Shown: positions 9,910 through 64,000 of the stretch, piece by piece | Numbering within the stretch: position 1 is the stretch's first letter | How the letters are laid out: each line of letters begins with the position of its first letter | NCBI RefSeq assembly: GCF_003991155.1 | Contig: NZ_CP031293.1 | Length of the DNA stretch: 64,000 bases | DNA from: Escherichia coli | Lineage (GTDB): Bacteria > Pseudomonadota > Gammaproteobacteria > Enterobacterales > Enterobacteriaceae | Strand: one strand, 5' to 3' | Position numbers and translations under genes: made by a program | The notes under the pieces: model-generated | Database searches by the model: none | The model's input: the letters and a program-made list of their open reading frames with translations, nothing else | Told to the model about the DNA's origin: nothing

Positions 9910-10592
<683 letters not shown>

Positions 10593-15070: not shown

Positions 15071-15080
15071 TGATCATTAT

Positions 15081-15108
15081 GCCGGGTTATCCAACCCGGC
15101 ATTTCTCC
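15081..15108 (+). terminator. Intrinsic terminator after hemB
   Basis: gccgggtt-atcc-aacccggc hairpin (15081-15100) followed by atttctcc. Confidence 0.55.
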
Positions 15109-25634: not shown

Positions 25635-26846
25635 TCAGGCATCTGCACACGGCTGCATTCGTGATCTCCGGCTCATCAAAATAAACACTGCCAGGCCGGC
25701 AACAAGAATACCCGGCGCAGAAGCGGCCATTACGCCAACCGTGCCAGTGCCTAATGCCAGCATTTTCCCGGCCAGTAACGGACCGCTCATAGCCCCCAGA
25801 CGCCCTACCGCCACGGCTGTTCCCACACCTGTTGCGCGGATCTGCGAGCTGTAAAACAACGGTGCCAATGCATACAAAACGCTTTGCCCACCTGTCGCAA
25901 ACAACCCCGCGACGAATCCCGCCAGCAACATACCGTTAAATGACGACACCGTTCCCAGCGCCAGCAGCGAAGCTAACATGTCGCTATAAATCAGTAGCGA
26001 CATGGTTACTGGACGCAGCTTATCCATCAATGCGCCCAACATTAACGTCCCGCTTGCCGCCCCCATTTGCAGTGCAAACATCACCCCTGCCGCCTGCGAT
26101 GGCTGGAATCCTTGCTCCACCAAAAGCAGCGGTAGCCAGTTGATCAACATGTAGACCACCAGCAGAGTGAAGAAATAACACAACCACAGCAGCAGCGTCG
26201 CGGTGGCCGTTTCTGGCGCAAATAACGCACGCAGTGGTGGCGCAGCCTGTTTTTCGCCAGCGAACACCGCCGACTCCGGCAGCCAGCGCATTAATAGCGG
26301 CACCAGAATCAACGGCACCACACCACCTACCCAAAACACCGTTTGCCATGCTAAGTTTGCCCCCGCGAAACCCAGTGTCGCCGCCAGCGCCGCGCCAATG
26401 GGAACACCGCAATACATCAGGCTCACTGCCGTCCCACGAAAACGTGGACCCGCGGCTTCAGACGTCAGGGCGATCAGATTCGGCAACGCCGCCCCCAGCC
26501 CGACACCGGTCATCAGCCGCGCAAAGACCAGTGAGGGGAAATCCCAGGCAATCGCCGTTGCCAGTGAGAACAAACCAAACAGCGCAACTGAGCCAATCAA
26601 AATGCGCTTGCGACCATAACGGTCCGCCAGCATTCCGCCAACCAACGCGCCGGGTAGCAAACCGAGTATTCCGGCGCTGAATATCCAGCCCATTTGCATT
26701 TTATCGAGTGCAAAAGCCTGGGCGATGCCACCCGCCGCAATGCCAGCCGCCTGAAGATCCAGCCCTTCCATCAGAGCGACCAAAAAACAAAGCCCGATGG
26801 TCAGCATCAGGCGGGATGAAGATGATGAAGGGGTACGAGTCGACAT
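25635..26846 (-). CDS. mhpT: 3-hydroxyphenylpropionate/3-hydroxycinnamate MFS transporter
   Basis: ORF-track frame to 26915; ATG at 26846 gives 403 aa MSTRTPSSSSSRLMLTIGLCFLVALMEGLDLQAAG..., 12-TM MFS. Confidence 0.85.
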   Translation of the reverse strand: MSTRTPSSSSSRLMLTIGLCFLVALMEGLDLQAAGIAAGGIAQAFALDKMQMGWIFSAGILGLLPGALVGGMLADRYGRKRILIGSVALFGLFSLATAIAWDFPSLVFARLMTGVGLGAALPNLIALTSEAAGPRFRGTAVSLMYCGVPIGAALAATLGFAGANLAWQTVFWVGGVVPLILVPLLMRWLPESAVFAGEKQAAPPLRALFAPETATATLLLWLCYFFTLLVVYMLINWLPLLLVEQGFQPSQAAGVMFALQMGAASGTLMLGALMDKLRPVTMSLLIYSDMLASLLALGTVSSFNGMLLAGFVAGLFATGGQSVLYALAPLFYSSQIRATGVGTAVAVGRLGAMSGPLLAGKMLALGTGTVGVMAASAPGILVAGLAVFILMSRRSRMQPCADA

Positions 26847-35559: not shown

Positions 35560-38672
<3,113 letters not shown>

Positions 38673-40756: not shown

Positions 40757-41911
40757 TCATGCCTCTTTGACCCACAGCTGCGGAAAACGTGCTGGTGCAA
40801 AACGCAGGGTTATGATCATCAGCCCAACGACGCACAGCACATGAAACGCCCAGTCCATCAAGTAATTGCCACTGATACTACGCAGCACACCAGAAAACCA
40901 GGGAGCAAGCCCGGCGATGATAAAACCGCTCCCCTGCATAAACGCCACCAGTTTGCCAGCAATAGCCGGTTGCGCAGAGTGATCGAGCGCCAGCAGCAAA
41001 CAGAGCGGAAATGCGCCGCCCAGACCTAAACCACACACCATCGCCCAGAAGACCGGCAATTGCAGCGGCAGCCAGATAAAGCCGCAGAAACCCACCAGTT
41101 GTAACGCCAGCGCCAGCATCAAAAGTTTGCGCCGATCCTGATGGCGAGCCATAGCAGGCATCAGCAATGCCCCTGCAGCTTGCCCAAGCGTCATCAACGC
41201 CAGCAAGGAACCGCTGTACTGCGCGCTGGCACCAATCTCAATATAGAAAGCGGGTAACCAGGCAATCAGGCTGGCGTAACCACCGTTAATCAGACCGAAG
41301 TAAACACCCAGCGTCCACGCGCGGGGAGTGAATACCACGCGAACCGGAGTGGTTGTTGTCTTGTGAGAAGAGGCGACCTCGCGGGCGCTTTGCCACCACC
41401 AGGCAAAGAGCGCAACAACGGCAGGCAGCGCCCACCAGGCGAGTGTTTGATACCAGGTTTCGCTATGTTGAACTAACCAGGGCGTAATGGCGGCACCAAG
41501 TCCACCGCCGCCCATCAGAGCCGCGGACCACAGCCCCATCACCAGTGGCGTACGGTGCTGAAACCGCCGCTTAATTACCGAAGGCATCACTGCCTGAATG
41601 ATGCCGATCCCCACTCCACCAAGCAGTGCGCTGCTAAGCAACAGCGCACTTTGGGGGTAAAGCTCACGCATCAATGCACCGACGGCAATCAGTAACAAAC
41701 TGATGGCGACGCTGCGACGTTCGCTGACATGCTGATGAAGCCAGCTTCCGGCCAGCGCCAGCCCGCCCATGGTAACCACCGGCAGAGCGGTCAACAGGGC
41801 AGCCACGCTAAAGCTCATTCCGCTTGCCTGGCGCAATTGCGGTAGCAGTGGCCCGACGGAGGTGAGCAGTGGTCGCATATTAAGACCAATCAGCACCAGA
41901 ACCAGCAGCAT
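40757..41911 (-). CDS. cynX: Cyanate transporter (MFS)
   Basis: ORF-track frame to 41938; ATG at 41911 gives 384 aa MLLVLVLIGLNMRPLLTSVGPLLPQL... Confidence 0.9.
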   Translation of the reverse strand: MLLVLVLIGLNMRPLLTSVGPLLPQLRQASGMSFSVAALLTALPVVTMGGLALAGSWLHQHVSERRSVAISLLLIAVGALMRELYPQSALLLSSALLGGVGIGIIQAVMPSVIKRRFQHRTPLVMGLWSAALMGGGGLGAAITPWLVQHSETWYQTLAWWALPAVVALFAWWWQSAREVASSHKTTTTPVRVVFTPRAWTLGVYFGLINGGYASLIAWLPAFYIEIGASAQYSGSLLALMTLGQAAGALLMPAMARHQDRRKLLMLALALQLVGFCGFIWLPLQLPVFWAMVCGLGLGGAFPLCLLLALDHSAQPAIAGKLVAFMQGSGFIIAGLAPWFSGVLRSISGNYLMDWAFHVLCVVGLMIITLRFAPARFPQLWVKEA

Positions 41912-46930: not shown

Positions 46931-47018
46931 GTAGGCATAATAAGACGCGGTAAACGTCGCATCAGGCATCGGCGCATGGTGTCGGATGCGCCAGGCGACG
47001 CATCCGACAATAACCTAC
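46931..47018. repeat. BIME between codB and prpE
   Basis: gtaggcataataagacgcggtaaacgtcgcatcaggcat ... gtcggatgcgccaggcgacgcatccgac. Confidence 0.7.
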
Positions 47019-58820: not shown

Positions 58821-60203
58821 TCAACCTGCCACACTCCCCCACACCAGTTGCCCTTTATGGAACGTTGCGGTTCTCGGCGAGATACGCGCCACCGCCTCGG
58901 CGGAACAGGAGGCGTCCACCAGCACAAAGCTGGCGTCATCCTGCGCTTTGGGCCACACGCGCTCGCCTTTTTCGTTGAGCGGCAATACATCGCCAGTGGC
59001 TAAAAACAGCGAACGGGACAAATTCTGTTCGTTAGGACGAATATAGAGCTGCGCGTAGAGATTGGCTTTTTCCAGCATGTCGCCCAGGCCGTAGGGAGAC
59101 CAGTGGTCGATAACGCTGTCGGTGCCGGTCATGACTTGTACGCCTTTGTCGTGCAACTGTTTGAGCGGCATATGCAGCGTGCCAATCGGCACCGTCGAGG
59201 CGATAGAAATTTGCTGCGCCGCCATCCGGTGCGCCAGTTCATCTACCTGTTGCTCATTGAGCGTTGCCAACGCAAAGGCGTGACTGATGGTCAGCTTGCC
59301 CTTCAGCTGTGGCGTTTTCTCTACCGTTTCAACCATATAATTGATGGCTGCCACGCCCGACGGAGTGGTTTCGTGCAGGTGAATATCGACGCCTTTGTCG
59401 TAGTCCAGCGCAATCTGGAACATGGTGTCGAGGGATTTTTCCATCGCGCCATCGACACTGGTCGGGTCCAGTCCGCCGACGTAATGCGCACCCGCCTGCA
59501 TCGCTTCGCGCATTAAGGGTTCTGATTTCGACAGCAGCAAACCGTGCTGCGGGAAGGCGACAATTTCACACTCGAAGCCCGCCTGACGTCGCGCCAGAAC
59601 CGCCTGCAAATTTTGCAGATTTTTCAGGCCGGAAACCGGTTCGATATTGCAGTGGCTGCGGGCAATGGTGGTGCCTTTCGACTGCAATAAATCGATCAGT
59701 TTTTCCGCCCGCTCCTGCGTGTACGGTTGTAACTCCGGCAGCATTTTCTGCTCGAGTTTGATCATGTCCTGGATGGTGGTGCCTGCCGGGCGATTGAGCG
59801 AGCGCCACGGCCCGCCGTAGAAAGTTTTGTCGAGATGAATATGCATGTCGCGGGTGGTGGGCAGCATCAACTTACCGCCTGCGTCATAGTGCGGCAGCGT
59901 GGCCTCCGGATGCTGCTTGTTCTCGCGCAGGGCAACAATTTTGCCGTTCTGAATCTCTACGGTCTGGTGCGCCGTGCGGGTCTGCACCGCCACACCGTTT
60001 TCGTAGTCAAAACCGGTTTCCAGCAGCACGTTGTCGAGATAGTAGTGCGGGTCAGTGATTTTCATGGTGTTATTTGCCTCGCAGTGGGTTGTGCCAGAGA
60101 CTGCCGCATGGGCGAGCGGCACTGAGGTACCAAACAGCGCGGCGGCGGTAACCATCTTACCGCTCTGGCTCAGAAATTCACGGCGGCTATTGTTTTCTTT
60201 CAT
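58821..60203 (-). CDS. yahJ: Amidohydrolase/deaminase-family protein with twin-arginine (Tat) signal peptide
   Basis: 460 aa; N-terminus MKENNSRREFLSQSGKMVTAAALFGTSVPLAHAAVSG (SRREFL Tat motif); metal-dependent hydrolase motifs (HIHLD). Confidence 0.85.
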   Translation of the reverse strand: MKENNSRREFLSQSGKMVTAAALFGTSVPLAHAAVSGTTHCEANNTMKITDPHYYLDNVLLETGFDYENGVAVQTRTAHQTVEIQNGKIVALRENKQHPEATLPHYDAGGKLMLPTTRDMHIHLDKTFYGGPWRSLNRPAGTTIQDMIKLEQKMLPELQPYTQERAEKLIDLLQSKGTTIARSHCNIEPVSGLKNLQNLQAVLARRQAGFECEIVAFPQHGLLLSKSEPLMREAMQAGAHYVGGLDPTSVDGAMEKSLDTMFQIALDYDKGVDIHLHETTPSGVAAINYMVETVEKTPQLKGKLTISHAFALATLNEQQVDELAHRMAAQQISIASTVPIGTLHMPLKQLHDKGVQVMTGTDSVIDHWSPYGLGDMLEKANLYAQLYIRPNEQNLSRSLFLATGDVLPLNEKGERVWPKAQDDASFVLVDASCSAEAVARISPRTATFHKGQLVWGSVAG

Positions 60204-60212
60204 CTTACGTCC

Positions 60213-61163
60213 TTAGGTTTTAATAATATGGGTGCCCGTTTCGCCGCGTAGCGCCGCAGGCAGGCATTCCGGCGTGGTGATAATCACTTTTTTACCGCCC
60301 TGCTCCAGGAACGTCAGGCTGGCGATGATTTTTGGCAACATGCTGCCGGGTGGGAAATGCCCTTCCTGCATATAGCGGGTCATGGTGGCAATATCCACCC
60401 GATCCAGCACCTGCTGCTGCGGTTTGCCAAAGTGAATACACACTTTTTCGACGCCAGTGGTGATCACCAGAATGTCGGCGTGAATTTCACGGGCCAATAG
60501 CGCGGTAGAGAGATCTTTGTCGATAACCGCGTCCACGCTTTGATAATCTCCCGCTTCGGTGCGCACCACAGGAATTCCACCGCCGCCCGCGCCAATCACC
60601 ACAAAGCCTTGTTGGATCAGCGCCTTAATGGCAGGTGCTTCGACAATACGTTTCGGTTCCGGCGAGGCGACCACGCGGCGATAGCCCCGTCCGGCATCTT
60701 CAACAAAACGCCAGTCAGGGTTTGCCTTTTGTAGTTCGTCACGCTGGCTTTCACTAAAGAATGCGCCGATGGGCTTGGTGGGATGGGCAAACCCCGGATC
60801 GTTTTTATCCACTTCCACCTGAGTCACCACGGTGACGGCTTTTTTCTCGCCGTGACGCGCCAGCCGGTTATTCAGCGCCTGCTGGATCAGATAGCCAATG
60901 CCGCCTTGCGTATCCGCCACACAGTTCGCCAGCGGCGTTAAGGGCAGCCCTTCGCGCTCGTGGGCAATCTCCGCGCGGCGTAAATCCAAACCGACCTGCG
61001 GTCCGTTGCCGTGGGTCAGCACAATGTCGTAATCGGAAGCCAGCATTTCCAGCACCGTATCGGCGACGGCCTTCACCGCCTCCGCCTGATGCTCAATCGA
61101 CTGGCTGGCGTTATCTTTGATAATGCTGTTGCCACCAATGGCAACGACCACAAGTTCTTTCAT
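60213..61163 (-). CDS. yahI: Carbamate kinase-like protein
   Basis: ORF-track frame to 61280 would overlap yahG; ATG at 61163 gives 316 aa MKELVVVAIGGNSIIKDNASQ... Confidence 0.85.
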   Translation of the reverse strand: MKELVVVAIGGNSIIKDNASQSIEHQAEAVKAVADTVLEMLASDYDIVLTHGNGPQVGLDLRRAEIAHEREGLPLTPLANCVADTQGGIGYLIQQALNNRLARHGEKKAVTVVTQVEVDKNDPGFAHPTKPIGAFFSESQRDELQKANPDWRFVEDAGRGYRRVVASPEPKRIVEAPAIKALIQQGFVVIGAGGGGIPVVRTEAGDYQSVDAVIDKDLSTALLAREIHADILVITTGVEKVCIHFGKPQQQVLDRVDIATMTRYMQEGHFPPGSMLPKIIASLTFLEQGGKKVIITTPECLPAALRGETGTHIIKT

Positions 61164-61258
61164 GTTGTTATGTCCGCTACAGAGGGTGATGGGGTTATGA
61201 GAGTGAGGTTGCCCTTCTCCCCAAAAGGGAGAAGGTATCGTAAGGTGCGGTTGGAGGG

Positions 61259-62677
61259 TCAGACGCCGTAACGTTCGCACCAGCCAAGAATGGCTTTCTC
61301 GAAGCAGGCGAAGGGTGGATGCACAATGCCCGCGCCAATCATGCCGACGCCCGCATCTTTATGGGCAATGGCGGTGTTGATCACCGGCAGAATGCCGCTG
61401 CTACCCACGCGGGTGATGTCGATTGCCGACGGCACGCCCATAAAACCGAGCAGCGGAATGGTCACGTTGGGGTTTTCGCCGAGAGTGATTTCGCGCATCT
61501 GACGGGAGAAATCGATAGCCTCTTCCACCGTACCGCCCACCAGCGCGACGATTGCAGGCGCGGTCGCCATAGCAAATCCGCCAATGCCGTAGGTTTCGGT
61601 GATGGCGCTGTCGCCGATATCCAGCCCCGAATCTTCCGGCTTATAACCGGCAAACATCGGGCCGATCACCTGCTGCGCCGGACCGGTAAACCATTGCCCC
61701 GGTAATCCGCTGACCCGCAGACCGAACTCGACGCCGTTACGCGCCATGGTGGTCACCACAGTGCTGTATTCGATGCCGTGCGCCGCATCCATCGCCGCTT
61801 TACACATCGCCATCCACGTCGGGCCGGAGAAGTAGTCACTGCTGGCGACAAACTCAAACACTTCGCGCTGTTGCTCGACGGAGTAGCCCGCCTGAATAAT
61901 CCCCGGCGTCAGCGCCTGAATCAGCAGCGTCGTCCCGGCGTTATTGCGGTTATGGCACTCATCGCCCATATGCAGCGCCTGCGCCAGCATTAAGCGCAGA
62001 TCGATTTCGCCGATAATTTTCATCGCGTCGCGCAGCATGGGTCCCTGCACATCGCGCATCCAGTTGAGGCGGTCGATCACGCTCTGGTCATTAGCGCCCA
62101 TACGCAAAATCTTCGCCATCTGCTCGCTCATGTTGGTATAAGCGATGTTGCCGTAGGTTTTGTTTTTCACGATGTGCATAAACATCGAGGCCGAGGTGAC
62201 GCCCGCCATCGATCCCACACAGTCGTGCTCGTGGCACGGCGAGAAAGTGATCTCACCGGAAGCCGCCAGTTCAGCCGCCTCGTCGAGATCTTTCGCCAGC
62301 CCTTCGAACACCAGCGCCCCGGTGACCGCGCCTTTCATCGCGCCGCACATTTTTTCCCAGGTGACCGGCGGCCCGGCGTGAAGAATGGTTTTCGGCGTCA
62401 TGCCCGGCACCACGTTAATCGCCTGATCAAAACCAATCAGCACCGGATGTGACTGAATAATGCGTTCCAGCGCCTGCTGGTTAGCGGCGGCGATTTTGTC
62501 TGCCAGCGGCGAATCGGCAATGTTGTCCAGCGCCTGCACCACCTGCATATTGCCCTGCCCCGGCGGCGTCCAGTCGAGTTGAGTCACTTCTACATGCTGC
62601 TTTTTCAAATCATCGCTAAACATGGCGATGCCGACGTTAATAACGTTCAACGGTTGGCTAAACAGTGACGGGCTCAT
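61259..62677 (-). CDS. yahG: DUF1116-family protein YahG
   Basis: 472 aa; start ATG overlaps yahF stop (ATGA), implying translational coupling. Confidence 0.8.
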   Translation of the reverse strand: MSPSLFSQPLNVINVGIAMFSDDLKKQHVEVTQLDWTPPGQGNMQVVQALDNIADSPLADKIAAANQQALERIIQSHPVLIGFDQAINVVPGMTPKTILHAGPPVTWEKMCGAMKGAVTGALVFEGLAKDLDEAAELAASGEITFSPCHEHDCVGSMAGVTSASMFMHIVKNKTYGNIAYTNMSEQMAKILRMGANDQSVIDRLNWMRDVQGPMLRDAMKIIGEIDLRLMLAQALHMGDECHNRNNAGTTLLIQALTPGIIQAGYSVEQQREVFEFVASSDYFSGPTWMAMCKAAMDAAHGIEYSTVVTTMARNGVEFGLRVSGLPGQWFTGPAQQVIGPMFAGYKPEDSGLDIGDSAITETYGIGGFAMATAPAIVALVGGTVEEAIDFSRQMREITLGENPNVTIPLLGFMGVPSAIDITRVGSSGILPVINTAIAHKDAGVGMIGAGIVHPPFACFEKAILGWCERYGV

Positions 62678-64000
62678 CAGGCTTCCTCCCCTTTGCAGAT
62701 AAATTCACGCGCCAGCAATCCGGTATTGGTGCTGCTGCTCGCCAGAATCACTCCGGCATCAAGCAGCATCTGGCTTTGTTGTTCTAATGATGGCGTATCA
62801 AGATCGGTACCCAGCACATAGGCGAGAATGATCAACTCGCGTCCTTCGGCAGCGGCGATCGCTTTCGCCTCTTTGATCGCCTCGATGGTGGAACCGACCG
62901 GATCTTCATGCGATCCAAACCCGAGCACAAAATCCATCACGATCACCGCCACTTCTGGATCGCGCGCTTCTTCGATCAACCGGCTGATGCGGTTGGTCGG
63001 GTCAATCATTGGATGCGGCTTGCCGTTGGTAAAATCGTCATCGCCAAAGTCGAGGAAGGTATGTTTGACGCAGCGGTTGATATCTTTCAGGCGGAATTCA
63101 GGATCGGGCTGGATGTTGCTGTAGACATCGCCGTGTTTTTCCATCACCGCGAACATGGTTTCGTCACACAGCGTACCGCCGCAGAACAGGCCACGAATGT
63201 ATTTCTGTTGTGGCTTCAGGCGAGCGCGCACGTCAGCAATCAATGGCTGGTTCAGGGTATGCAGATCGAGATGTTCCTGTTTCACGCCGGAGAGCATTAC
63301 CGCTTTCAGCGCCGCTTCTTTGCTGCCGCGAGCAAACTGTAGCCCCTGCTCATCCACTGGCGTTTCGCCACGACCGAGGAAGCAGACCACCACCGGCTTG
63401 CGGCAGGCACGTGCGCGTTCCAGCACTTTGCGGGCCACCGCAGGCGCAGGCGGTTTGGAGATAAGCACAATGATTTCAGTTTGCGGATCGTTTTCCAGCA
63501 TCCCGATGGCATCGAGCATCATCAGACCGCCGATTTTCTCGCTCAGGTCGCGCCCGCCGGTGCCAATCAGTTGCGAAACGCCGCCGCAAAATTCATGGAT
63601 ACGGACGCTCAGTTCCTGGCTGCCGGTGCCAGATGCGCCAACAATGCCGATGTTGCCGCGACGCACGGCGTTACCAAAGCAGAGCGCCGCGCCGTTGATA
63701 ATCGCCGTACCGCAGTCTGGCCCCATCATCAGCAGCCCTTTTTCGTGGGCCAACTGTTTGAGCGCCAGTTCATCTTCAACTGAGACGTTATCGGAAAACA
63801 GCATCACGTTAAGATCGTTTTGCAGCGCCTGACGCGCTTCGCGAGCGGCAAACAGACCGTTGACCGAAATCACCGCCAGGTTACTTTCCGGGATATGCTT
63901 TTTGGCGCTGGCAATAGTGGCATAGCGTGCTTCATGTGAACCAGTTTGAGCTTTGGTGTTGAACAGTTCTTCAATCTCCACCAGCAACTGCTCGTTGTCT
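62677..64000 (-). CDS. yahF: FdrA-like (CoA-binding, succinyl-CoA-synthetase-like) protein, 3' part only (5' end beyond window end)
   Basis: Frame open to window end; track 'start' at 63987 is an in-frame TTG, not the true start. Confidence 0.8.
   Translation of the reverse strand, partial: DNEQLLVEIEELFNTKAQTGSHEARYATIASAKKHIPESNLAVISVNGLFAAREARQALQNDLNVMLFSDNVSVEDELALKQLAHEKGLLMMGPDCGTAIINGAALCFGNAVRRGNIGIVGASGTGSQELSVRIHEFCGGVSQLIGTGGRDLSEKIGGLMMLDAIGMLENDPQTEIIVLISKPPAPAVARKVLERARACRKPVVVCFLGRGETPVDEQGLQFARGSKEAALKAVMLSGVKQEHLDLHTLNQPLIADVRARLKPQQKYIRGLFCGGTLCDETMFAVMEKHGDVYSNIQPDPEFRLKDINRCVKHTFLDFGDDDFTNGKPHPMIDPTNRISRLIEEARDPEVAVIVMDFVLGFGSHEDPVGSTIEAIKEAKAIAAAEGRELIILAYVLGTDLDTPSLEQQSQMLLDAGVILASSSTNTGLLAREFICKGEEA

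Follow-up and report, generated by a model that had tools for sequence, protein, structure and literature searches.

A probable BoxC relic in the strain-variable yahG-yahI junction of Escherichia coli

The described element closest to the hairpin studied here is BoxC, also known as the PIT element, TM_ECO or HPGQ, which is present in 23 copies in E. coli MG1655, always in intergenic positions (Holder et al. 2015, PMC4666352; Kaplan et al. 2016, PMC5100583). Its consensus, CCCTC[T/G]CCC-loop-GGGAGAGGG-[TTA/CCG]-GGGTGAGGG, consists of a palindromic core followed, after a 3-nt linker, by a third tract, and it has been proposed to fold either as an intrastrand triplex or as a G-quadruplex/hairpin switch (PMC4666352; PMC5100583). 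Holder et al. saw no signature of regulation at BoxC. They reported that BoxC loci are rearranged more often than control loci and that small intergenic deletions and mutations are concentrated there, that at inverted-pair (palindromic) sites a hairpin-like structure often outlasts the deletions, and that 13 of the 23 K-12 copies carry a mismatch in the stem (PMC4666352). In the main text of that study, yahG, yahH and yahI are unmentioned.

REP sequences and the BIMEs that they form are defined by a 30- to 40-nt imperfect palindrome with a y, z1 or z2 consensus and a 5' GTAG (CTAC on the iREP), usually arranged as inverted pairs (PMC3333891). BIME-2 elements occur in tandem, and their copy number varies between strains at a given locus (Ton-Hoang et al. 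2012, PMC3333891). As cited in PMC12306157, REPs are the classic intercistronic stem-loops that guard upstream mRNA from 3' exonucleases (Higgins/Newbury work), and a REP located less than 16 nt from a stop codon was reported to depress translation of the upstream gene (Liang et al. 2015).

The hairpin lies between two genes of the minus strand in the window, that is, in the whole 64-kb stretch of E. coli DNA that was analysed. The upstream gene, yahG (61259..62677, minus strand; ORF list and RefSeq), encodes a 472-aa protein of the AllG/DUF1116 family (Pfam PF06545, E = 4.5e-89), a paralogue of an oxamate carbamoyltransferase subunit, while yahI (60213..61163, minus strand; ORF list and RefSeq) encodes a 316-aa protein of the carbamate kinase family (Pfam AA_kinase). 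The yahG stop codon (61259-61261) and the yahI ATG (61161-61163) are separated by a gap of 95 nt (61164-61258), which is rich in C and poor in G (37 C, 14 G). As a previous reading of this DNA from its letters (hereafter the sequence-only reading) had pointed out, the other junctions of the operon are overlapping or near-abutting: the stop codon of yahF runs into the start of yahG at 62677, and only 9 nt lie between the yahI stop and the yahJ start. The RefSeq annotation of a genome identical to the window holds no feature inside the yahG-yahI gap, and a scan of 60000-62500 with the Rfam covariance models, on both strands and with E up to 10, returned zero matches.

The sequence-only reading had described a perfect 9-bp stem with a 5-nt loop in this gap, and this description proved exact. 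On the plus strand, ccttctccc (61213-61221) and gggagaagg (61227-61235) are exact reverse complements and enclose the 5-nt loop caaaa (61222-61226). Since yahG and yahI both lie on the minus strand, the minus strand is the mRNA strand, and there the hairpin core (61213..61235, minus strand; 5' arm 61227-61235, loop 61222-61226, 3' arm 61213-61221), as delimited by the sequence, RNAfold and the BoxC profile described below, reads ACCUUCUCCC-UUUU-GGGGAGAAGGGC, in the transcript context ...GAUACCUUCUCCCUUUUGGGGAGAAGGGCAACC.... The hairpin begins 22-23 nt past the yahG stop and ends about 50 nt ahead of the yahI start. On the mRNA strand, RNAfold gave 10 pairs, namely, nine Watson-Crick pairs and a closing U·G (61226 with 61222), around a 3-nt loop. 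The calculation of the folding energy, suggested together with the original description, yielded a stable stem, with -17.6 kcal/mol for the isolated hairpin. The full 95-nt gap reached -20.8 kcal/mol on the mRNA strand (z = -1.96 relative to dinucleotide shuffles), and its z value on the opposite strand was an unremarkable -0.28. Perfect stems of at least 9 bp with loops of 3-8 nt were found at 7 loci (11 overlapping matches) of the 64-kb window, compared to a shuffle mean of 1.6 matches. The hairpin is non-random, yet it is one among several such stems in the window.

For the comparison with BoxC, we built an nhmmer profile from the 23 published K-12 copies, and hence independently of the yahG-yahI locus, using a hand-registered alignment because MAFFT misregistered the left arms. 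The hairpin was the only significant match of this profile in the window, with 128 kb searched (E = 0.0065, 13.2 bits, 61216-61232, model positions 4-20). The commoner E. coli haplotype of the hairpin, type 2 (see below), scored 16.9 bits (E ~1e-3), and canonical copies from Kluyvera and Klebsiella scored 32-37 bits. The core in the window, CCTTCTCCC-TTTTG-GGGAGAAGG, agrees with the BoxC core at 8 of the 9 positions of each arm; the differing positions of the two arms pair with each other and compensate, a C-G pair of the stem having become U-A. The hairpin thus possesses the palindromic core by which BoxC is recognised (CCCTC[T/G]CCC, a 3- to 6-nt loop and GGGAGAGGG), with polypyrimidine and polypurine arms (CCTTCTCCC/GGGAGAAGG here, CCCTCTCCC/GGGAGAGGG in BoxC) around a T-rich loop. 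In contrast, the third tract GGGTGAGGG and the 3-nt linker of BoxC were not detected at the hairpin, where the profile alignment ends at model position 20-23.

We then considered the genomic setting of the hairpin. Like BoxC, it is intergenic. A Klebsiella BoxC copy used as a query matched a median of 16 places per E. coli genome, in keeping with a dispersed, multi-copy family, whereas the diverged variant seen here is present in one copy per genome in nearly all carriers. In a global alignment, the whole E. coli gap was collinear with the gaps of Kluyvera gsp1, K. intermedia and Klebsiella spallanzanii, with the hairpin falling on the BoxC core. The marks shared in this alignment are GCGCAC... 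on the 5' side and ...AACC... and ATAAYC-CATCACCYTCTG on the 3' side, and the CCCTCACCCC-AA side of the Kluyvera element corresponds to CGCACCTTACGAT in E. coli. The distance from the element to the yahI ATG is about 50 nt both in E. coli and in Kluyvera and K. spallanzanii, so the hairpin occupies the orthologous position, the very site at which these species carry canonical copies, and, as described below, the locus displays the kind of small-scale instability reported for BoxC.

Given the profile match and the collinearity, we interpret the hairpin as derived by descent from BoxC. As the third tract is absent, it is not filed as an intact BoxC, and neither the triplex nor the G-quadruplex fold is available to it. 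Overall, these comparisons make it likely that the hairpin is a decayed BoxC core with this identity and this origin, although a palindrome as short as this, made of polypyrimidine and polypurine arms, could match the BoxC core by convergence. An Escherichia allele with a CCCTCACCC tract 5' of the hairpin, if such an allele exists, would represent a less-decayed BoxC.

The junction between yahG and yahI differs widely in length among other genera. It was measurable in 72 of the 80 other genomes with YahI homologues, and at 54 loci it spanned 1.56-2.0 kb, which includes most Citrobacter, Enterobacter, Leclercia, Lelliottia, Buttiauxella, Serratia, Providencia, Atlantibacter and Pantoea. All six long gaps examined hold an ORF of 512-529 aa with about 12 hydrophobic segments by hydropathy. 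The 516-aa protein encoded between yahG and yahI belongs to no family in Pfam or NCBIfam; from its hydropathy only, we call it a polytopic membrane protein, and we assign it to no named permease family. This gene is missing, and the gaps measure 79-315 nt, in Escherichia, Kluyvera, Raoultella, K. spallanzanii, C. amalonaticus and a few others. Since the gene is present in most other Enterobacterales and absent in Escherichia, the long E. coli junction is most simply explained as the scar of a gene loss.

A strong hairpin or a repeat was found in the gap of all 18 short-gap loci. In the gaps of Kluyvera gsp1, K. intermedia, K. cryocrescens and K. spallanzanii, this is CCCTCACCCC-AA-CCCTCTCCC-loop-GGGAGAGGG, often together with an inverted copy. 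BoxC is also located between the membrane-protein gene and yahI at many loci of Enterobacter, Leclercia, Lelliottia, Buttiauxella, Yokenella and Serratia. Copies of BoxC were seen elsewhere within those loci as well. Other species are free of structure ahead of yahI: Citrobacter has a 26-nt hairpin-free spacer, and in Trabulsiella and many Enterobacter the start of yahI lies in a 4-nt overlap with the preceding gene. The existence of species with neither spacer nor structure before yahI indicates that no such element is required there.

We next turned to E. coli itself. A 1-kb query centred on the gap retrieved the locus from 5,048 of 5,426 complete E. coli genomes, with matched spans ranging from 1,001 to about 1,420 nt and with about 60 bases of the query unmatched in most genomes. 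Allele comparison and a table of the junctions delimited a hairpin-allele cassette (61201..61258, minus strand) composed of a 23-nt 5' spacer (61236-61258), the hairpin and a 12-nt 3' segment, GCAACCTCACTC (61201-61212). This cassette was searched as a 68-nt query by blastn against the 5,426 genomes (E <=10, 28 Gb) and was found in 654 of them, about 13% of those with the locus. Carrying genomes had it in a median of 1 and at most 2 places, and it adjoined the yahG 3' end in 40 of the 40 matches listed. As for a dispersed repeat, this search, which short diverged copies would escape, found only the yahG-yahI copy.

Representative E. coli loci yielded six gap sizes. The hairpin cassette allele has a gap of 94-95 nt (the window and L006), alleles with one BIME unit have gaps of 142 nt (L003) and 152 nt (L002), and gaps of 329, 421 and 514 nt correspond to three units (L004), four units (L001, the K-12 allele) and five units (L005), respectively. 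The longer alleles are made of tandem units, each GCCGGATGCGGCGTGAACGCCTTATCCGGCCTAC plus a linker plus GTAGGCCTGATAAGCGTAGCGCATCAGGC, that is, y and z2 REPs with CTAC/GTAG, which identifies them as BIME-2. REP/BIME features were present in L001-L005, L012, L015 and L016, while a 30- to 40-nt imperfect palindrome, a y, z1 or z2 consensus and GTAG/CTAC were all looked for in 61164-61258 and none was found. In the sampled alternative E. coli alleles, BIME-2 arrays thus replace the hairpin and its 3' segment. What all sampled alleles have in common are the stop-proximal bases and the 37-nt yahI leader (61164..61200, minus strand), TCATAACCCCATCACCCTCTGTAGCGGACATAACAAC, which contains the motif CATCACCYTCTGYASYGGA and a GGA Shine-Dalgarno-like element. 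As judged from allele and cross-genus alignments, this leader is identical or nearly identical in hairpin and BIME alleles and can be aligned with those of Kluyvera, Klebsiella, Raoultella and Citrobacter.

The hairpin and the REP/BIME-2 arrays are therefore alternative alleles at the same site, and both are intercistronic palindromes that are presumably transcribed. They differ in that the hairpin has neither GTAG/CTAC nor a y, z1 or z2 consensus and consists of a single 10-bp stem instead of tandem 30- to 40-nt imperfect palindromes. The yahG-yahI gap is a strain-variable repeat site, a point absent from the sequence-only reading. In the comparison with other E. coli strains that it had proposed, 654 genomes carry the hairpin, and BIME-2 stands in its place in the sampled alternative alleles.

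The allele comparison also bears on the start of yahI, for which the ORF list offered a 355-aa ORF beginning with GTG and reaching 61280. The shorter, 316-aa start that had been preferred from the letters is backed by RefSeq and by the alleles: yahI measures 951 nt (316 aa) in the RefSeq annotation of the window-identical genome and in every allele sampled, and the alignment of YahI homologues from the 80 other genomes begins at residue 1. In addition, the 39 extra codons of the longer ORF traverse a segment that the alternative alleles we sampled lack, having unrelated BIME sequence in its stead, and hence these codons cannot be coding. By these comparisons, the 355-aa ORF is an ORF-caller artefact, and the true yahI start is the ATG at 61161-61163.

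The same alleles allowed us to deal with two readings that the hairpin invites, a remnant of the yahH pseudogene and an intrinsic terminator. yahH is annotated in this gap in K-12, and the sequence-only reading had considered the hairpin as a possible vestige of it. The K-12 yahH CDS (positions 740-1036 of L001), however, lies wholly inside the four-unit BIME-2 array (gap 665-1085) and has no sequence in common with the cassette; between the cassette and the K-12 allele, only the terminal leader and the stop-proximal bases are shared. ORFs resembling yahH were also called in the three- and five-unit arrays, and yahH thus looks like a spurious ORF call inside repeats and not like a gene. As to intrinsic (Rho-independent) terminators, the hairpin shares with them a GC-rich stem, a short loop and a location downstream of a stop codon. 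It differs from them in its location within an operon, with the next start codon only about 50 nt away, and in the lack, on either strand, of the T- or U-tract that in a terminator begins 0-2 nt after the stem, since the mRNA strand continues GCAACCUCACUC and the other strand UAUCGUAAGG. Furthermore, a terminator/promoter consensus scan of 60000-62800 called no site at the hairpin, the regional site counts being those expected from shuffles. The previous judgement that this is not a canonical terminator was thus correct, and sequence comparison together with the missing U-tract rules out both readings, to which we give virtually no weight.

We then examined the junctions between the repeats and their flanks. 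In the BIME alleles of the ST131 type and of E. albertii, the homologous 23-nt spacer (CCTGCAAAG...) is retained and the BIME begins exactly at the place of the hairpin; in K-12-type BIME alleles, the spacer that follows the yahG stop measures 13 nt. E. whittamii retains, after its BIME, the 3' flank of the hairpin allele, AACCTTACTC, which the E. coli BIME alleles lack. Compared with E. whittamii, the latter look like products of a 14-nt deletion between TCATAACC direct repeats. This junction pattern fits BIMEs having displaced the hairpin. Both Escherichia outgroups sampled, E. albertii and E. whittamii, carry BIME alleles, so that simple parsimony within Escherichia makes the BIME ancestral; we infer the opposite polarity, from hairpin to BIME, because of the cross-genus collinearity and the E. 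whittamii intermediate. Flanking SNPs do not track allele class. The flanks of L009, a hairpin allele, are identical to those of K-12 over 250 nt, and the flanking-SNP distances, examined for the ancestral allele, did not separate the allele classes, indicating that the polymorphism is old and recombining.

Two haplotypes of the hairpin were distinguished in E. coli. Type 1, to which the window and IAI39 belong (about 160 genomes), has the perfect 9-bp stem, while in type 2 (about 490 genomes) pair 7 is a U·G and the stem is extended at its base by one further C-G pair. When the stem pairs were tabulated from the loop outward, since differing loop lengths shift the right arm in MAFFT, canonical Kluyvera and Klebsiella BoxC had C-G at pair 7, where type 2 has U·G and type 1 has U-A. 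The type 2 stem is more stable in the sense than in the antisense orientation (-19.5 versus -15.5 kcal/mol, a difference of 4 kcal/mol), and its arms are identical to those of the Kluyvera BoxC at 17 of 18 nt, while the adjacent third tract has decayed. The series C-G to U·G to U-A is suggestive of a compensatory path, in which the wobble would be legitimate only on the mRNA-sense strand, for one pair and in few haplotypes. Templated correction of quasi-palindromes can perfect stems without selection and yield the same pair pattern.

Several other explanations have to be weighed against a passive relic. If the junction needed a stable stem-loop, whichever palindrome supplied it, to uncouple or differentially stabilise yahEFG and yahIJ, the hairpin would be a selected RNA stability or processing element. 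This would account for the strong hairpin or repeat in 18 of 18 short-gap loci, for arms that remain nearly identical to those of the Kluyvera BoxC despite the decay of the third tract, and for a path at pair 7 that is valid only on the mRNA-sense strand. However, where the intervening gene is retained, yahI often lacks any structure ahead of it, as seen from the -4-nt overlap and the 26-nt spacer, and the covariation comes down to a single pair in a handful of haplotypes, where templated correction could have perfected the stem in the absence of selection. The stem mismatches in 13 of the 23 K-12 copies show, moreover, that perfect pairing is not demanded of BoxC, and no regulatory signature was found for the family (PMC4666352). 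We thus consider a selected RNA element unlikely. In a broader version, the junction would be selected for a stable stem-loop of any origin, and the BoxC relic, BIME-2 and the other GC-rich hairpins of Raoultella, Citrobacter and Kluyvera would have been recruited interchangeably as a device that stabilises the mRNA between the cistrons or decouples them. If this were true, the path from C-G through U·G to U-A would be the footprint of such selection, and hairpin and BIME alleles would set different YahG:YahI ratios among E. coli lineages; it appears somewhat less likely still.

The hairpin could also be unrelated to BoxC and resemble it by chance, either as a terminator or stem-loop left over from the lost membrane-protein gene or as a palindrome that arose de novo. 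The absent third tract, the profile scores of 13-17 bits, compared with 32-37 bits for canonical copies, and the one copy per genome in nearly all carriers are in line with this idea. Against it stand the single significant profile match in the 128 kb searched, which falls on this hairpin, and the canonical BoxC copies with which it is collinear in three other species, at the orthologous site and equally spaced from yahI. Since BoxC follows the membrane-protein gene in many genera, a leftover 3' structure would in addition be nearly the same thing as a BoxC relic, and we regard a chance resemblance as improbable. A little less credible again is an element acting at the DNA level with no RNA role, be it a hot spot of instability or non-B-DNA structure or a target for RAYT-mediated REP/BIME insertion. 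The rearrangement of BoxC loci above control loci (PMC4666352), the BIME that begins exactly at the hairpin's place in alleles with the 23-nt spacer and the shuffling of allele classes relative to their flanks would all agree with it, but the published triplex or G4 fold is unavailable without the third G-tract, and the replacement is equally explained by a single old event spread through homologous recombination.

The best overall explanation is, in our view, that the hairpin is a BoxC relic, acting as a passive intercistronic stem-loop in a polymorphic repeat site, to which we assign a probability of roughly 0.65. According to this explanation, a BoxC repeat would have stood about 50 nt upstream of yahI since before the split of Escherichia from Kluyvera and Klebsiella. 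Loss of the gene for the 516-aa membrane protein most likely left the unusually long junction, which would then have become a permissive landing site for palindromic repeats. The BoxC relic would persist in about 13% of E. coli genomes, its stem kept and its third G-tract gone. In E. albertii, E. whittamii and the majority of E. coli, BIME-2 arrays of 1-5 units would have supplanted it, and the spurious yahH ORF would derive from such arrays. Both allele classes would since have recombined across strain backgrounds.

In the cell, the hairpin would be co-transcribed in the yahEFG-yahIJ mRNA and fold into the 10-bp stem-loop. Any effect would presumably be generic, the stem impeding 3'-to-5' exonucleases and modestly protecting the yahG segment relative to yahIJ. 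A measurable effect of this kind on mRNA stability is possible but rather doubtful, and that such an effect should be selected we hold to be unlikely. At 23 nt from the stop codon, the hairpin would be too distant to stall terminating ribosomes. The K-12-type BIME, located at 13 nt and thus inside the range of less than 16 nt that PMC12306157 cites for REPs, might depress yahG translation, whereas the hairpin at 23 nt should not.

There is thus no sign of a new mechanism in this hairpin, which we regard as ordinary: most likely, it is a known repeat that has decayed, in a polymorphic repeat site of a familiar type. Its analysis is chiefly of use for annotation, namely, of yahH and of the yahI start, but it also accounts for a long junction in a tightly packed operon, by gene loss followed by repeat occupation, and documents two repeat families, BoxC and BIME-2, as alternative alleles at one site. 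If these alleles differ in yahG and yahI expression, the junction would provide a natural test bed for the tuning of operon stoichiometry by intercistronic palindromes.

In three of the loci that carry tandem BIME-2 units in place of the hairpin between yahG and yahI, RefSeq annotates a CDS, either as "protein YahH" or as "hypothetical protein," that lies wholly inside the array, namely, at 740-1036 in L001 (K-12 W3110, four units), at 696-968 in L004 (three units), and at 833-1129 in L005 (five units). The length of these yahH-type ORFs follows the BIME copy number, and all three are almost certainly spurious.

In the E. albertii locus (L012), the gap measures 315 nt and includes a second copy of the final ~50 nt of yahG (…GAGAAAGCCATTCTTGGCTGGTGCGAGCGTTACGGCGTTTGA) followed by a further BIME; the unit of tandem duplication is therefore the coding 3' end together with a BIME. 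In E. whittamii (L016), TCATAACC-TTACTC-TCATAACC comes after the BIME, within the last ~60 nt of the gap. Fourteen nucleotides of the 3' flank of the hairpin allele are kept in E. whittamii and absent from the E. coli BIME alleles, a difference that has the appearance of a deletion between direct repeats of 8 nt.

The allele occupying the gap was not tracked by 250 nt of flanking sequence, either between L009 and K-12 (L001) or between the window and the single-unit locus L002. In particular, the hairpin allele of L009 has flanks identical to those of the K-12 allele with four BIME units. This mismatch indicates either recombination whose breakpoints lie very near the gap or repeated replacement of the allele. 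In Pseudocitrobacter (L013 and L014), the gap holds an E. coli-type BIME-2 and YahI is 98% identical in amino acids to that of E. coli, which suggests recent transfer from Escherichia or else contamination or mis-binning. Plasmid records among the E. coli genomes searched contain the yahG-yahI segment at 226 places, 4 of them with the hairpin allele, and some genomes have up to five copies of the segment, pointing to a locus that is occasionally plasmid-borne or duplicated.

The yahI leader of the window (61164-61200) and its orthologues in L017-L064 share a motif, CATCACCYTCTGYASYGGA(A/C), conserved in Escherichia, Kluyvera, Raoultella, Klebsiella, and Citrobacter. Within this motif, an anti-SD-like CACCYUCU lies 5 to 7 nt upstream of the GGA Shine-Dalgarno sequence, and RNAfold often predicts a 4-bp mini-hairpin there. 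The motif could act in translational control, or it may be no more than conserved RBS context.

A perfect stem of 9 bp or more, closed by a loop of 3 to 8 nt, occurs at six other loci of the window (10553-10578, 15079-15102, 25978-26003, 35788-35813, 41625-41650, and 46982-47007). Some of these stems reach 11 to 12 bp, and the six probably represent terminators or REP-like elements. The yahG-yahI gap itself is occupied by a different, long palindrome of ~75 nt (CGTTGTAGCCCGGGCGAGGCG…GCCGGGCTACAACG) in Kluyvera sichuanensis, K. ascorbata, and a Klebsiella MAG (L022, L024, and L041); this palindrome appears to represent another REP-like family.

In the six long-gap Enterobacterales loci examined (among L025-L091), an ORF of 512 to 529 amino acids lies between yahG and yahI, as in L028 (gap 121-1671). 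Its product has ~12 hydrophobic segments, begins with MK/NxxKLEWKRGDWAAYFGLMTNNLTNLL, and had no match in Pfam or NCBIfam. In the Enterobacter cloacae-type loci (L045, L048, L057, L063, L065, and L067), where the gap is 1588 nt, this ORF continues across a BoxC copy, which is translated as the C-terminal tail of the protein, and its end overlaps the start of yahI by 4 nt. The ORF encodes a conserved uncharacterized membrane protein within an AllG/carbamate-kinase-type operon, and its gene has been lost in Escherichia.
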